In this document: positions 26,575 to 29,910 of the stretch, one piece after another
How positions within the stretch are numbered: position 1 is the first letter of the stretch
Layout of the letters: the number at the start of each line of letters is the position of its first letter
DNA from: an uncultured archaeon
GTDB taxonomy: Archaea > Asgardarchaeota > Thorarchaeia > Thorarchaeales > Thorarchaeaceae
NCBI GenBank assembly: GCA_964473825.1
Contig: CAYYQL010000033.1
Span: forward strand, 1-29,910
Reading direction: 5' to 3'
Length of the DNA: 29,910 bases
Notes under the pieces: model-generated
What the model saw: only the letters and a program-made list of their open reading frames with translations
Told to the model about the DNA's origin: nothing
Databases searched by the model: none
Position numbers and translations under genes: made by a program

Positions 26575-27126
26575 CTACTCAAGTTCCTCCATTAGAAGCT
26601 GAAAGTCCATCTCAATCTGCGATCTTACCTTCGGAGATCTAAGAGCTGCTGCAGGATGATACGTTATGAAGTAGGTATTACCATCTGCCTCATAGAAGCT
26701 ACCGTGCGCATCAGAAATCTTCCAAGGTCCTATCAGAGATGAGGTTGCGACCCCTCCAAGTAATACAATGATGTCGAGTTGAATTATCTCGATCTGTCTA
26801 TCAAGGTACGGAATACATGCCTCAATTTCGTCCTTCCGGGGAGTTCTGTTCTCTGGTGGTCTAGACTTTAGAATAGATGTGACGAACACCCTCCCCCGAG
26901 GAAGTCCAATCTTGTTCAATAAATCAGTGAGCAGCTTACCAGACGACCCGACGAAGGGACGGCCAGTCTCGTCCTCTGTCTTCCCTGGCGCCTCCCCCAC
27001 AAGCATGACGTGAGCATCTATAGGTCCCTCTCCCGGAACTGCGTTTTTTCGTGTCTTATGTAGATCACACTTTGTGCAGTTCCTGATCGCCCTGTGTAGA
27101 TCTTCAAGTGACTCTTACCTGCTCAT
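26575..27126 (-). CDS. udg: Family 4 uracil-DNA glycosylase with an in-frame TAA at codon 4 (possible pseudogene)
   Basis: 'GEAPGKTEDETGRPFVG' motif A and 'TYHPAAALR' motif B. Upstream of the track start 27006 the frame continues 'ESLEDLHRAIRNCTKCDLHKTRKNAVPGEG' back to ATG-AGC-AGG-TAA at 27126-27115. Confidence 0.88.
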
Positions 27127-27283
27127 TATAGACCGCATTGAGATGGGCTTTGCGACTAAAAAGGACAACTAAACCGATAACATTGCGAGGAGAGCTTGAG
27201 GCTCTGCTTACGCTTGTACGAAATAGACCTTAAAAGCAGAATCAATGAATCATCAGATAATAGCTCTAGGAGTTGCAGAAGAC

Positions 27284-28921
27284 ATGCGTATGCTACGAAC
27301 CACTTCGGAGACCTTCCCGGCCGAGAAAGAGATGATGGGTGATATCCCGTATGTACTCCGGGTGGAGTTTGGGGCCCTTGAAGAAGAGCCAGAGAGAATC
27401 ATCGGTAAGCCGATAGCGTGTTACAAGTGCGGAGGTTTTCTCCTCAGTGTGGATCAGATACTTGAGGAGGACAAGGTCGGTAAGCACTTCATCTGCTCCT
27501 TCTGTGGAACACTGAATGTTATTGAGGGAAAAATAATCAGTGCAGGGGACAATGCCGATTTCGTTGTGGAGCCTCCTCGTGATGCCGCAGAATCTCAGAA
27601 AGAACCACTAAAGCAAGTTGGAGGGAGCTTTCTCGCACTCATAGATGTTTCAGGTTCTATGGCAGGTGCTAACCTCGCTGCTGTCAAGAGGAGTCTCAGG
27701 ACATCAGTTGAGAGTCTAGCCAAGAACGCGCCAAATACCATGTTCGGCTTGATAGAATTCGAGAGCAGAGTCTTGTTCAGAGACCTTCATTCAGGTGCAG
27801 AAATAGCCCTCCCGCGTAACTCCTATGCCAGTTTTCACGAGATACAGAAAGAAACCAAGAAGATGATGGACCGGATTAGGTTTCTGGGTGTTGGTGAGAA
27901 TTCAGAGAAGATCAAAAAGCATCTCAATGCATTGCGTGATCAAGGAGGAACAGCTCTCGGCCCCGCTGTTGCCATGGGATATACCATTGCAAAACACCGA
28001 GATGTGGGCCGTGTTGTGTTGTTAACCGACGGGCTAGCCAATGAGGGTATAGGGGCACTAGAAGGCTACCAAGTCACTCCCGCAGCCAGTTTCTACGAAG
28101 AAGTAGGACTTCAGTTCATGGAAAATGGTACTGCAGTCGATGTTGTAGGCATTGCGTCGGGCGCCGGAATGGAGCTCAAGACATTGGGCCTTCTTGCAGA
28201 GGCTACAGGTGGGCAGATGTACTATGTTACACCTACCGAGCTTGACCAAAGCATAGCAGAATTGGCGGGTAGTTCTCTCCTTGGTCGGGATGTAGAAGTG
28301 CGACTGATAACGCCCACCGGTGTCAAAGTGAAAGATGCATCAGGGGTTTCGCGCGCGATTATTGAGGAACTGAGAACCAAAGCCGGGAGTAAAATCGGTG
28401 CAGTTGGCGAGAATCACGAGCTCTATTTCGAGATTGAACCCGAGAGTAAGATTGAGACGGAAGATGTGCCCATTCAGGTTCAGGTGACTTATACCGATGC
28501 AGAGGGCGCCCGCAGAGTCCGGGCAGTGACGACCAGACTCAAGGTTGCAAAAGACAACAAGGAATTGCTGGAGACTCTTGACCCCACCATAGGTGCAACG
28601 TTTGTGACTCAAAAGGCAGGAGAAGAATCCTTCAGAGGGAATCGGAAGGAGGGGAAGAAACGTATTGCTTCTTTCAGAGCAGCCATGAACAGACAGGCCA
28701 AGTCAGCGCCGGAACCAATTCAGAATCGGATGAATGAGATAGACAATGTCTTGGCTGAAGAAGAGGATGAGATGGAACGTTTGGATGATATGATGAAAGC
28801 TGCACCCGCTTCGGCGCCATCTACCGCGGCCGACCAGGCATATACCTCTGGACTTCAGCAGATGCGTCGTAGTTCGAAACAGATGTTCGGCAAGAATAAG
28901 GCCGACGAGGAGGAAGAGTAG
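27284..28921 (+). CDS. Sec23/Sec24-like protein (Zn finger + vWA trunk + beta-sandwich + helical tail)
   Basis: 'PIACYKCGGFL...FICSFCGTLN' is a Sec23/24-type Zn finger. vWA motifs 'LIDVSGSM', 'GGTALGPA', 'LLTDGLAN.G.G', 'LAEATGG'; beta-sandwich 'QVQVTYTDAEGARRVRAVT'. Start is ATG 27284 or 27290 (track 27245). Confidence 0.8.
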   Translation: MRMLRTTSETFPAEKEMMGDIPYVLRVEFGALEEEPERIIGKPIACYKCGGFLLSVDQILEEDKVGKHFICSFCGTLNVIEGKIISAGDNADFVVEPPRDAAESQKEPLKQVGGSFLALIDVSGSMAGANLAAVKRSLRTSVESLAKNAPNTMFGLIEFESRVLFRDLHSGAEIALPRNSYASFHEIQKETKKMMDRIRFLGVGENSEKIKKHLNALRDQGGTALGPAVAMGYTIAKHRDVGRVVLLTDGLANEGIGALEGYQVTPAASFYEEVGLQFMENGTAVDVVGIASGAGMELKTLGLLAEATGGQMYYVTPTELDQSIAELAGSSLLGRDVEVRLITPTGVKVKDASGVSRAIIEELRTKAGSKIGAVGENHELYFEIEPESKIETEDVPIQVQVTYTDAEGARRVRAVTTRLKVAKDNKELLETLDPTIGATFVTQKAGEESFRGNRKEGKKRIASFRAAMNRQAKSAPEPIQNRMNEIDNVLAEEEDEMERLDDMMKAAPASAPSTAADQAYTSGLQQMRRSSKQMFGKNKADEEEE

Positions 28922-29089
28922 CGCTAAACAGACGCTGTGTGTTCATCTTTCGCCTATTTGCGGGAGGGGTATGATCCCCGCAGAATGCGCAAAAGAGATA
29001 TGCATGAGGGGACACACTGCCACAACTCTCAAATACCCAAGAGCGACGTAGAAACTGCTGACGCACTATCTAACAGTGGGGATTTACGG

Positions 29090-29380
29090 TTGATTAGCCA
29101 AGAGCGACTTGATGCAATTCTTGCAGATCTTACAGCCCAGGAGGGCATTAGAGGAGTCGTAGTCACAACCATGGAAGGTCTACCATTGAGCAGTGATCTT
29201 CCACCTGAAACCACTGAAGCCGTCGCTGCAATACTGACCTCTCTGGTAGGTAAGGCACTTGATGCAGTTCGAGAGCTTAAGGAGGGGTCTTTGTCGTTCC
29301 TGACCCTTGATACAACCGAGGGACAGATAAACATCGCACCGGATGTTAAGGAGGGCCTCATATTAGTAGTCCTCAAATAG
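29090..29380 (+). CDS. Roadblock/LC7 domain protein, dynein-light-chain (RLC7)-like
   Basis: 96 aa from TTG 29090: 'GIRGVVVTTMEGLPLSSDL...AAILTSLVGKA...VREL...LSFLTLDT..GQINIAPD..LILVVL'. The track's N-terminal extension from 28937 is not Roadblock-like. Confidence 0.88.
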   Translation: MISQERLDAILADLTAQEGIRGVVVTTMEGLPLSSDLPPETTEAVAAILTSLVGKALDAVRELKEGSLSFLTLDTTEGQINIAPDVKEGLILVVLK

Positions 29381-29405
29381 GAAGGTATCCAAGAGGTACA
29401 CCACC

Positions 29406-29873
29406 ATGAGCGATCCGAAAGCCTTTGACAAGATACTCACGGAGATTATTCGACAAGATAAGGGAATCAAGAAAGTGATTCTTGTCGATAAGACTGGGCT
29501 TACAATAGCCAATGTGAGCAAGTTGAGTTACTACCCCGTCGATGTGGACAGCATCGGTGCAATTGCGAGTGCCGTGTTTTGTGCTAGTGAAGAACAGGGC
29601 AAGAACTTGCAGATAGGAGAGCTTGAGATTGTGACATCCGAGTTCTCGGAGGGAAAAATCTTCGCCTCAGCCTGTGGTAAGGGGGTTCTCTGTGTAGTAT
29701 CAGAGGCAGAGGTAAACATCGGTCTCATTCGTCTGGTGATGAAGAAACAGGGTAAGCAACTGGCAGACGAGCTGGACAAGTTCCTCGCAGTGGAACCAAT
29801 GGCACCCAGCAAGGATCGCGAACTTGACGAGGAAGACCTGAAGTCCGCCTTGGCCGAACTCGAGAGAGTTTAG
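29406..29873 (+). CDS. Roadblock/LAMTOR2 (MglB-like) protein with C-terminal acidic helical extension
   Basis: 'GIKKVILVDKTGLTIA', 'DSIGAIASAVF', 'L.IGELE', 'EF.EGKIF', 'VNIGLIRLVMKK'. GAGGT SD upstream. Confidence 0.9.
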   Translation: MSDPKAFDKILTEIIRQDKGIKKVILVDKTGLTIANVSKLSYYPVDVDSIGAIASAVFCASEEQGKNLQIGELEIVTSEFSEGKIFASACGKGVLCVVSEAEVNIGLIRLVMKKQGKQLADELDKFLAVEPMAPSKDRELDEEDLKSALAELERV

Positions 29874-29910
29874 ATAATGAACCATTTCTGACAGATTGAG
29901 TGACCTCATC

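Follow-up and report, generated by a model that had tools for sequence, protein, structure and literature searches.

A probable MglA/MglB-type switch with additional Roadblock proteins beside an independent Sec23/24-like gene in Thorarchaeaceae

Three co-oriented genes, encoding a Sec23/24-like protein, a short Roadblock protein (RoblA) and a longer Roadblock protein (RoblB), lie at the end of the window, a stretch of 29,910 nucleotides that constitutes one entire contig (C33) of a Thorarchaeota MAG (genome G000). The cluster to which they belong is probably an archaeal MglA/MglB-type switch equipped with extra Roadblock scaffolds, situated beside an independent Sec23/24-like gene of the known, gelsolin-less kind. 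An earlier note on this DNA recognized the three genes and their domains correctly (Sec23/24-like, short LC7-type Roadblock, longer MglB/LAMTOR2-type Roadblock), but read them as one system in which a Roadblock heterodimer would regulate the GTPase of a primitive coat. That reading is not supported, on several counts: the module is found throughout the Asgard archaea in the absence of any Sec23/24-like neighbor, the adjacency of the Sec23/24-like gene is only at the level of the synteny background, the gene has been lost twice and moved once with the module left intact, and RoblA has a promoter-like element of its own. A primitive vesicle coat is thus not supported by the position of this gene.

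The Roadblock Proteins

RoblA (29090..29380, + strand) is a truncated Roadblock protein of 96 aa and of the RBLC7 type (dynein LC7/LAMTOR4-5). It matches Robl_LC7 with 53.5 bits (Pfam), and its best solved relatives are PDB 7f8f, a 94-aa Robl_LC7 chain (E 1e-22), and the DYNLRB dynein light chain (E ~3e-10). By our own matching, 7f8f corresponds to the Odin-RBLC7 protein of PMC10933270. The TTG start codon at 29090 is well placed: a homologous TTG or GTG opens the orthologues, 7f8f aligns from the same residue, and the stretch upstream aligns as non-coding, promoter-like DNA. RoblA has no C-terminal helix, as is typical of RBLC7 proteins, and 40 orthologues mostly end 0-8 residues past the last strand.

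RoblB (29406..29873, + strand; 155 aa) is of the MglB/LAMTOR2 type, with a Roadblock/LC7 fold, complete with its N- and C-terminal helices, followed by a C-terminal extension that comprises a variable linker and a conserved terminal helix. Pfam matches include Robl_LC7 (PF03259, 37.8 bits) and MAPKK1_Int (32 bits). The nearest solved chains are those of MglB (6izw/6h5b, E ~4e-5 over residues 13-149, with E 3.5e-5 for the best chain) and LAMTOR2 (E ~4e-3). Among 31 sequences from nine Asgard families, 52 columns are invariant. The NCBIfam equivalog model for MglB scores far below its cut-off (22.3 bits vs. 200, E 1e-4), and strict orthology with MglB is therefore not claimed. It is on weak sequence similarity that RoblB, rather than the third Roadblock protein described below (RoblC), is proposed as the GAP of MglA.

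The End of the Contig and the MglA-Family GTPase

Contig C33 stops at 29910 because a MITE-like repeat that has inserted at RoblB's stop codon (TAG) broke the assembly. The last 40 nt of the window (29871..29910, no strand assigned) are the left terminus of this ~520-bp repeat, as identified from its copies in the same genome. Contigs C75, C51, and C57 also carry the left end at or near their termini, and C12, C19, and C102 contain full, internal copies. The TTG at 29896 (MSDLI...), suggested earlier as the possible beginning of a next gene, lies within the repeat terminus and is no gene start.

By synteny, the genome continues from C33 into contig C76, from position 153 onward, a join based on gene order and not on reads that span the repeat. 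In G002, a genome of the same genus, the intergenic region matches C33 to 29873 and thereafter C76, starting at 153, the two matches overlapping by 3 nt (TAG), and gene order is colinear with C33 followed by C76. A TAG target-site duplication was considered as sole proof of this pairing and rejected. Other repeat-bearing contig ends also show TAG; what supports the join is the colinear gene order of G002 and other Thorarchaeota genomes. Contig C76 encodes an MglA-family GTPase (C76:446-1009), the RB-type Roadblock protein RoblC (C76:1026-1397), a cis-prenyltransferase, and orf4, an all-alpha protein of 411 aa. With this continuation, the small GTPase predicted earlier is indeed encoded just downstream, and nearly all Thorarchaeota loci on sufficiently long contigs show the same order, with a third Roadblock gene after that of the GTPase.

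The GTPase is a single-domain protein of 187-194 aa for which Pfam reports only Arf/Ras/Roc matches (residues 17-187). Its closest PDB relatives are MglA structures (6hjh/3t12, E 5e-38 over residues 15-189), with Arf at E 9e-12. Invariant motifs include the GxxxxGKT P-loop, R58-T59 within the RTLFFD switch I, T-x-x-G-Q83 in G3, and N140-K-x-D143. The protein thus shows the characters of the MglA family: a lone Ras-like domain (G1-G5), an arginine of its own in switch I, and threonine where G3 otherwise has aspartate. Pfam detects no C-terminal Roadblock domain, in contrast to the Rag/Gtr GTPases, which carry one and act as heterodimers. In ~50 Thorarchaeota loci as well as in other Asgard families, the gene follows RoblB and is itself followed, after 16 nt, by RoblC, well within the four genes taken as the limit of coupling. 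Such coupling to Roadblock genes is a hallmark of the MglA family (PMC4316618).

Conservation of the Module and of the Adjacent Gene

An MglA orthologue is present in 26 of the 27 sampled Asgard families (133 of 151 genomes). The full order RoblA-RoblB-MglA-RoblC is found in at least seven further Asgard families, and partial orders in others. A divergent fourth Roadblock gene (Robl4) often accompanies the module at its opposite end, as the first gene of an SMC-ScpA-ScpB operon, and a cis-prenyltransferase gene usually follows RoblC. Spacing is tight, with 19 nt between RoblA and RoblB and 16 nt between MglA and RoblC. Identity across genera is 90-100% for MglA and 86-100% for RoblB, vs. 52-68% for the Sec23/24-like protein; purifying selection on MglA and RoblB is very strong.

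Only 7 of the 27 Asgard families yielded a Sec23/24-like gene, which adjoins the module in Thorarchaeaceae alone. Every other examined family that has both keeps them unlinked (Hermodarchaeota, Borrarchaeota, and families f2, f12, f16, f19, and f27), and 860 kb separate the two in G060, a complete genome. A scan of the genes near the Sec23/24-like gene of Hermodarchaeota and Borrarchaeota revealed no GTPase, Roadblock, longin, or solenoid genes, only metabolic ones (acyl-CoA dehydrogenase, beta-lactamase-fold protein, threonine synthase, homoserine dehydrogenase, and ABC ATPase). A protein of ~1200 aa encoded 5' of the gene was considered as a shared partner and discarded: the Thorarchaeota protein is SMC, and the 1199-aa protein of Hermodarchaeota is unrelated to it.

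Throughout Thorarchaeaceae, in at least 16 genera, the Sec23/24-like gene resides inside the cluster of four Roadblock genes and the GTPase gene, and the arrangement is not limited to the genome analyzed here (~60 Thorarchaeota loci). Within the family, the adjacency is seen in 31 of 31 loci, compared with 28-30 of 31 for unrelated flanking genes used as synteny background (such as SMC, ScpAB, and acetyl-CoA-synthetase-like genes); the whole ~15-kb neighborhood is equally syntenic. The Sec23/24-like gene has been lost in G005, where a 72-aa remnant persists exactly 5' of RoblA, and in G013, and has been relocated in G006, with the module intact in all three. In the genus of the window, a rearrangement took away the Robl4-SMC side while the Sec23/24-like gene stayed beside RoblA. 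As its position is lineage-specific and conserved no better than that of housekeeping neighbors, it is unusable as evidence for a primitive coat. A literature search of incomplete coverage returned no account of this cluster or of the genomic context of Asgard Sec23-like genes, and a prior description is possible.

The Sec23/24-Like Protein

The Sec23/24-like gene (27284..28921, + strand) encodes 545 aa from the ATG at 27284, as identified by Pfam, structure prediction, Foldseek, and alignments. The longest open reading frame opens at 27245, and a homologous methionine at the proposed start of 27284 begins most orthologues. Pfam matches are Sec23_trunk (PF04811, 46.4 bits vs. a cut-off of 27), with VWA also matched, and the beta-sandwich Sec23_BS (PF08033, 34.3 bits vs. 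33.5), as well as a weak match to zf-Sec23_Sec24 (E 0.08). The four cysteines of the N-terminal C4 finger (C46/C49/C71/C74), which is set within the beta-barrel, are invariant in 44 orthologues, and this region is modeled at pLDDT ~85-90. The AlphaFold model (pLDDT 83, pTM 0.84) comprises a beta-barrel, the zinc finger, a VWA 'trunk', a beta-sandwich, and a C-terminal helical domain. All of its top 46 Foldseek matches are Sec23/24 proteins (E to 1.4e-27, TMq ~0.7), and structural alignment with VIA (Z 28) pairs the model with residues 13-635 of Sec23A and 382-949 of Sec24A. Helices at model residues 425-545 follow the beta-sandwich, and the VIA alignment reaches as far as residue 635-648 of Sec23A and 949 of Sec24A. 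A profile built from the 44 orthologues matches Sec24 (9e-16) better than Sec23 (4e-5).

The protein stops after the helical domain, at 545 aa, and has no gelsolin-like C-terminal domain; the Sec23/24 target chains are 700-790 aa long, and their C-terminal ~120 residues are unaligned to the model (VIA). It therefore also lacks the arginine finger through which Sec23 acts as a GAP on Sar1. All Asgard Sec23-like proteins are without the gelsolin domain, which carries the catalytic residue of Sec23 (PMC11914678), and the protein of the window is this already described protein, here closer to Sec24. One match was found in G000 and one in each relative genome, so there is no Sec23/Sec24 pair of paralogues that might form a heterodimer. 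The MIDAS is complete and invariant among the 44 orthologues (D121/S123/S125/T223/D249). For a Sec24-like protein without a gelsolin domain, this makes a metal-dependent protein-binding adaptor the most likely function.

One elaboration, compatible with an MglA-type module beside an independent gene, is that the protein works as ArnB does, as a phosphorylation- or metal-dependent signaling scaffold with no role in coating membranes. The crenarchaeal ArnA-ArnB complex of Sulfolobus ('archaeal Sec23/24 core motif'), which regulates the archaellum, shares the VWA-MIDAS, the beta-sandwich, the helical domain, and a zinc finger touching the sandwich. ArnB (8s05) and its paralogue (5a8j) align over model residues 1-530 with Z of 25 and 23, respectively (VIA). 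The complete MIDAS (D-x-S-x-S, T, D) is found in ArnB as well (PMC12852372), whereas the aligned yeast Sec24 has lost the T and D positions, and a Ser-rich motif is conserved in the C-terminal tail of the Sec23/24-like protein. Sec24 and Sec23 are nevertheless clearly nearer, both by Foldseek (E 1e-27 vs. 1e-14) and by profile (E 9e-16 vs. 5e-7), and ArnB is shorter. The zinc finger is fused in cis, in the manner of Sec23/24, whereas ArnAB has it on another protein, one with an FHA domain. In an inspection of the neighboring genes that was not aimed at these types, neither FHA-domain nor kinase genes were noticed. On balance an ArnB-like role is rather unlikely.

Relationship of the Sec23/24-Like Gene to the Switch

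The 168-nt gap reported earlier 3' of the Sec23/24-like gene is real (28922..29089, + strand), and from the alignment of 14 Thorarchaeota regions it would separate two transcription units. A T-rich stretch follows the Sec23/24-like stop codon. Ahead of RoblA, the alignment reveals a conserved box, AATGCGCAAAA (28984-28994), and a BRE/TATA-like element, CCACAACTCTCAAATACC (29020-29037), and these are succeeded by an SD-like GGGGAT (29078-29083). Across 60 loci the median gap is 196 nt, vs. 19 nt between RoblA and RoblB. Separate promoter-like elements precede the Sec23/24-like gene, RoblA, and MglA, with the AATGCGCAAAA box not found before the Sec23/24-like gene or MglA. The Sec23/24-like gene would thus be transcribed separately from RoblA and the genes that follow it. 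The sequencing runs listed for this genome are all of DNA, derived from metagenomes of microbial mats and sediments.

It has to be weighed whether the Sec23/24-like protein of Thorarchaeaceae nonetheless forms one machine with MglA and the two Roadblock proteins, with the Sec23-like protein as an MglA-GTP effector or coat-like adaptor and the Roadblock proteins supplying GAP activity in trans. The recurrence of the gene within the cluster, and its survival beside RoblA despite a genus-specific breakpoint directly upstream, are consistent with such a machine. The Sec23/24 fold extends through the helical domain, which contributes to the Sar1 interface in Sec23 (PMC11914678), and a GTPase is the kind of partner that eukaryotic Sec23 has. 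In addition, there are eukaryotic proteins that fuse Ras-type GTPase domains with a Sec23/24 zinc finger and VWA, so that such modules do pair with small GTPases. Against this stand the linkage in a single family, with six other families keeping the two apart, the background level of the adjacency, the losses and relocation that left the module unchanged, the separate promoter-like elements, and the single Sec23/24-like copy per genome. In published tests, co-precipitation in yeast of Asgard Sec23-like proteins with an Asgard GTPase was weak and nucleotide-independent, although the GTPase used was an Arf and not MglA (PMC11914678). Alignment-based complex prediction of the Sec23/24-like protein with MglA, RoblA, and RoblB scored 0.00; run without controls, it is evidence neither way. 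A single machine is accordingly judged distinctly unlikely. Recruitment of the Sec23/24-like protein in this family as effector or adaptor of the MglA switch, with Roadblock dimers replacing the gelsolin GAP function in trans, is quite improbable; if true, it would represent a living GTPase-controlled proto-coat subunit and a route by which Sec23 could gain GTPase coupling.

Compared with COPII (Sec23/Sec24-Sar1), the protein shares the arrangement of barrel, zinc finger, trunk, sandwich, and helical domain (Z 28 over ~490 residues), and a GTPase gene is nearby. It differs in the absence of the gelsolin domain and arginine finger, in its complete MIDAS, and in being a single gene and not a pair; the nearby GTPase is of the MglA family, not Sar1/Arf, and the adjacency is confined to one archaeal family. 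The orf4 protein was considered as an alpha-solenoid or coat element. Its model is confident and all-alpha (pLDDT 88.7), and Foldseek against the PDB returned nothing at E<=0.001. The best VIA-wide alignment (Z 7.3) is to AAA+-lid-like helical bundles over ~75 residues, ARM/HEAT-like leads from Atlas features are weak and under the recognition mark, and no fold is assigned.

A Model for the Asgard MglA-Roadblock Switch

The favored explanation remains an MglA/MglB-type switch, with RoblA and RoblB as the first half of an ancient, Asgard-wide set completed by the MglA-family GTPase and RoblC. By homology with MglA/MglB of Myxococcus and Thermus, the GTPase would alternate between GTP- and GDP-bound states by means of an intrinsic arginine in switch I and the glutamine of G3. 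A RoblB-containing dimer would dock on the switch regions and place these residues, thereby providing GAP activity, and the conserved C-terminal helix of RoblB may have an allosteric role like that in MglB. Further Roadblock dimers, formed by the helix-less RoblA along with RoblC and Robl4, may serve as adaptors or scaffolds comparable to MglC/RomY or LAMTOR4/5. By analogy, the output of the switch is probably spatial or membrane-site control. The Sec23/24-like gene would have entered the divergent intergenic region of the cluster in the ancestor of Thorarchaeaceae.

The MglA-MglB polarity switch of Myxococcus xanthus and Thermus thermophilus likewise comprises an MglA-family GTPase of one domain, whose switch I supplies its own arginine and whose G3 reads T-x-x-G-Q, an adjacent MglB-type Roadblock whose C-terminal extension ends in a conserved helix, and extra Roadblock paralogues (there MglC and RomY). 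The Asgard module differs in being archaeal, in its four distinct Roadblock proteins, one of them an RBLC7 type without the helix, whose genes keep a fixed order, in the absence of RomR/RomX, and in its linkage to a cis-prenyltransferase gene and, divergently, to SMC-ScpAB. A scaffold akin to Ragulator-Rag (LAMTOR1-5, RagA/C) or yeast EGO, in which stacked RBLC7 and RB Roadblocks form a platform that anchors the GTPase to a membrane and serves nutrient or metabolic signaling, is very improbable: both Roadblock designs are present with a small GTPase (RBLC7-type RoblA; RB-type RoblB, RoblC, and Robl4; PMC10933270), RoblB resembles LAMTOR2 and matches the MAPKK1_Int family, and four Roadblock genes equal Ragulator's count, but the GTPase, unlike Rag/Gtr, has no C-terminal Roadblock and is nearest to bacterial MglA, with an E-value advantage of 26 orders of magnitude, and no LAMTOR1-like tether was recognized among the cluster genes, for which no dedicated search was made.

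Significance

The result counsels caution about the origin of COPII. Asgard genomes encode dozens of small GTPases and Roadblock/longin proteins, and matching each GTPase with its regulator by gene order is said to be difficult (PMC10933270). The locus of MglA and four Roadblock genes is a readable exception, and its fixed MglA-Roadblock order defines a small set of proteins for reconstitution. The locus is likewise relevant to the question of whether RB and RBLC7 Roadblocks, as combined in Ragulator, came together before eukaryotes arose.

Genes of the Window

The assembly of the source genome (G000) comprises 3.27 Mb in 103 contigs, one of which, C33, makes up the entire window (29,910 bp). 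ORF calling places three genes of one strand (plus) in the Sec23/24-like/Roadblock stretch: the Sec23/24-like gene (27284-28921), RoblA (29090-29380), and RoblB (29406-29873). The Sec23/24-like product exceeds the Pfam cut-offs for Sec23_trunk (46.4 bits) and Sec23_BS (34.3 bits), also matches VWA, and matches the Sec23/24 zinc-finger model weakly. Its start at 27284, as proposed in the earlier note, is borne out by the homologous Met, which is the start in most orthologues. On the minus strand, a uracil-DNA glycosylase ORF (26575-27006) may, as called, be N-terminally truncated because it begins at position 12 of the PF03167 profile.

RoblA is a 96-aa Roadblock protein of the RBLC7 type (Pfam Robl_LC7, 53.5 bits). 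Its nearest solved structures are 7f8f, a 94-aa Robl_LC7 chain (E 1e-22) presumed to correspond to Odin-RBLC7 (PMC10933270), and the dynein light chain roadblock (~3e-10). RoblA orthologues end directly past the last strand (n = 40) and keep a TTG/GTG start, with upstream DNA that aligns as non-coding. RoblB is a Roadblock protein that also matches MAPKK1_Int/LAMTOR3 in Pfam and, weakly, the MglB model; its nearest structures are MglB (E ~4e-5) and then LAMTOR2. Its linker is variable and its C-terminal helix conserved, and 52 columns are invariant among 31 sequences from nine Asgard families.

The Contig End and Its Continuation

A further gene had been suggested to start at TTG 29896. This codon instead falls within a MITE-like repeat, because the last 40 nt of the window (29871-29910) recur at other contig ends, being identical to those of C75 and C51, and inside C12, C19, and C102; close likeness extends to sites in C57, C102, C12, and C19. 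The ~520-bp repeat has at least three full copies in G000 (C12:26434-26953; C19:4862-5378; C102:1473-1982) and occupies about eight contig ends (window 29871-29910; C75, C51, C57, C76, C84, C48, C3), with its opposite end beginning or finishing four other contigs. It is non-coding, has termini of the CTGACA/TGTCAG type and left-end junctions at TAG, and looks like a MITE that fragments the assembly.

Contig C76 begins with the right repeat end, followed at once by a small GTPase gene and a third Roadblock gene, RoblC. A genome of the same genus (G002) is colinear, with Sec23-like, RoblA, RoblB, a ~270-nt spacer, GTPase, RoblC, cis-prenyltransferase, and a 411-aa protein, and its GTPase is 100% identical to that of C76. 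The G002 RoblB-GTPase spacer matches C33 to base 29873 and then C76 from base 153, with 3 nt, TAG, common to both, which puts the repeat insertion at the RoblB stop codon. The TAG overlap is seen only at this C33/C76 join, a join deduced from synteny rather than from reads across the repeat.

The MglA/Roadblock Module

The C76 GTPase matches solved MglA structures over almost its full length (E 5e-38, vs. 9e-12 for Arf). It retains the P-loop, switch-I Arg-Thr (...RTLFFD), T-x-x-G-Q G3, and NKxD, the same signatures as in the MglA mechanism of Thermus and Myxococcus (PMC4316618). RoblC matches 7f8m, a 120-aa Robl_LC7 chain (E 6e-23) that is probably the Thor-RB of PMC10933270. Genome-wide, G000 yields about 24 Ras-superfamily and 12 Roadblock matches. 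Each Thorarchaeota genome has a second MglA paralogue, ~50% identical and contained in a longer reading frame, 250-320 aa in length (G000:C11:4867-5418; L055-L058), and most have a third (~40%). The 411-aa protein, orf4 (G000:C76:2327-3562, L048), lies 3' of the prenyltransferase gene and is conserved in Thorarchaeaceae at 39-93% identity; its confident all-alpha model (pLDDT 88.7) has no significant PDB fold match, and the protein has no Pfam family.

The order Sec23-like, RoblA, RoblB, MglA, RoblC, prenyltransferase, orf4 recurs wherever contigs reach far enough, in 17 of 20 relatives compared and among 68 Thorarchaeota-type loci in public genomes, isolate A361 (G006) being the sole clear exception. 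There the Sec23-like gene lies on a different contig from the module; in G005 and G013 it is absent, G005 keeping a 72-aa remnant directly upstream of RoblA. All three genomes retain RoblA-RoblB-MglA-RoblC-prenyltransferase with normal scores, and the Sec23-like gene is dispensable to the module. Looking beyond Thorarchaeaceae, 133 of 151 sampled genomes, from 26 of 27 sampled families of the phylum, have an MglA orthologue, and at least seven further families have the complete A-B-G-C order (RoblA-RoblB-MglA-RoblC), often with a divergent fourth Roadblock. Only 7 of the 27 families yielded the Sec23-like protein. No Roadblock or GTPase gene adjoins it in Hermodarchaeota (10 loci), Borrarchaeota (2 loci), or families f2, f12, f16, f19, and f27, and in the complete genome G060 it lies ~860 kb from the module.

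Gene spacing gives three units. Median gaps are 196 nt from Sec23-like to RoblA, 19 nt from RoblA to RoblB, 247 nt from RoblB to MglA (with insertions to 3.9 kb), and 16 nt from MglA to RoblC. As a hotspot of insertion, the RoblB-MglA spacer has grown to 0.7-3.9 kb in about a third of loci, with the four flanking genes intact (L072, L074, L091, L092, L094, L098, L108, L113, and others, all Thorarchaeota). Within the Sec23-like/RoblA gap lie a T-rich stretch, the conserved box AATGCGCAAAA, and, some 55-60 nt ahead of the RoblA start, a BRE/TATA-like CCACAAGTCTAAAATAC. MglA is preceded by a strongly conserved element of its own, CCACAAAGGCTTTTATGAGAC; that of the Sec23-like gene is different and of the TTAAAA type. 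The 10-mer AATGCGCAAA (window 28984-28994) occurs only three times in G000, twice ~110-130 nt upstream of Roadblock genes; the second such site (G000:C11:13225-13305, upstream of C11:12921-13184) also has an inverted near-copy ~30 nt ahead of the ATG. Conserved ahead of RoblA across Thorarchaeota and not present ahead of the Sec23-like gene or MglA, the box is a candidate transcription-factor site of a Roadblock regulon.

The Sec23/24-Like Protein and Its Position

An AlphaFold model of the Sec23/24-like protein from a 44-sequence alignment has pLDDT 83 and pTM 0.84. All of its top 46 PDB matches by Foldseek are Sec23 or Sec24 chains (best E 1.4e-27, TMq ~0.7), and VIA-align superposes ~490 residues on Sec23A 13-635 and Sec24A 382-949 (Z 28). 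By these matches the protein has the beta-barrel, zinc finger, trunk, beta-sandwich, and helical domains; unlike Sec23 and Sec24, it ends ahead of the gelsolin domain, in agreement with published Asgard Sec23-like proteins (PMC11914678). The zinc finger has four invariant Cys, and the family profile matches Sec24 (9e-16) better than Sec23 (4e-5). The MIDAS is complete and invariant across the alignment (D121, S123, S125, T223, D249), whereas its T and D positions are lost in yeast Sec24. The model also aligns with crenarchaeal ArnB (Z 25), which has been termed an archaeal Sec23/24 core motif (PMC12852372). The gene encodes an already known Asgard protein, in a position peculiar to one family, Thorarchaeaceae.

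In most Thorarchaeaceae the gene has the module on one side and the divergent Robl4-SMC-ScpA-ScpB operon on the other. Across 32 loci whose flanks are complete, the Sec23-like/RoblA pair is present in 31/31 comparisons, and the unrelated genes of this operon and the downstream acetyl-CoA-synthetase-like genes in 28-30/31; the adjacency is therefore not above the local synteny background. In the window's genus a breakpoint lies directly upstream of the Sec23-like gene, the operon now being at C2:8623-14045. The gene stayed with RoblA at that breakpoint and left in G006, one event each way. Robl4, the divergent fourth Roadblock, is the first gene of the condensin operon (L093:2388-7822 of Thorarchaeota isolate BC; G000:C2:8623-14045; L063, L064, L155), which faces RoblA-RoblB-MglA-RoblC in Thorarchaeaceae and in no fewer than three other families of Asgard archaea. 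Through this arrangement the GTPase switch may be connected with the organisation or segregation of chromosomes.

A Proposed MglA/Roadblock Switch

The earlier note had tentatively joined the Sec23/24-like protein and both Roadblocks in one candidate GTPase-regulated proto-coat. A functional link between this protein and the switch may exist, as its gene persists inside the module cluster and eukaryotic proteins fuse Ras-type GTPase domains to the Sec23/24 zinc finger and VWA module, but it is supported by none of the tests run. In published work, co-precipitation of Asgard Sec23-like proteins with an Asgard Arf was only weak and did not depend on nucleotide (PMC11914678). The fusion proteins (P0002, P0003, L165:6001-9105; ~1030 aa, GTPase domains N-terminal) match 70% of the Thorarchaeota Sec23-like protein (E 2e-15 and 2.8e-14); L165 is a eukaryote-like contig of 839 kb that carries MBOAT, POLR1D, and HECT genes. 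RoblA and RoblB belong to an ancient MglA/Roadblock switch of Asgard archaea, a variant of the MglA-MglB system with several Roadblocks and with a mechanism proposed from homology.
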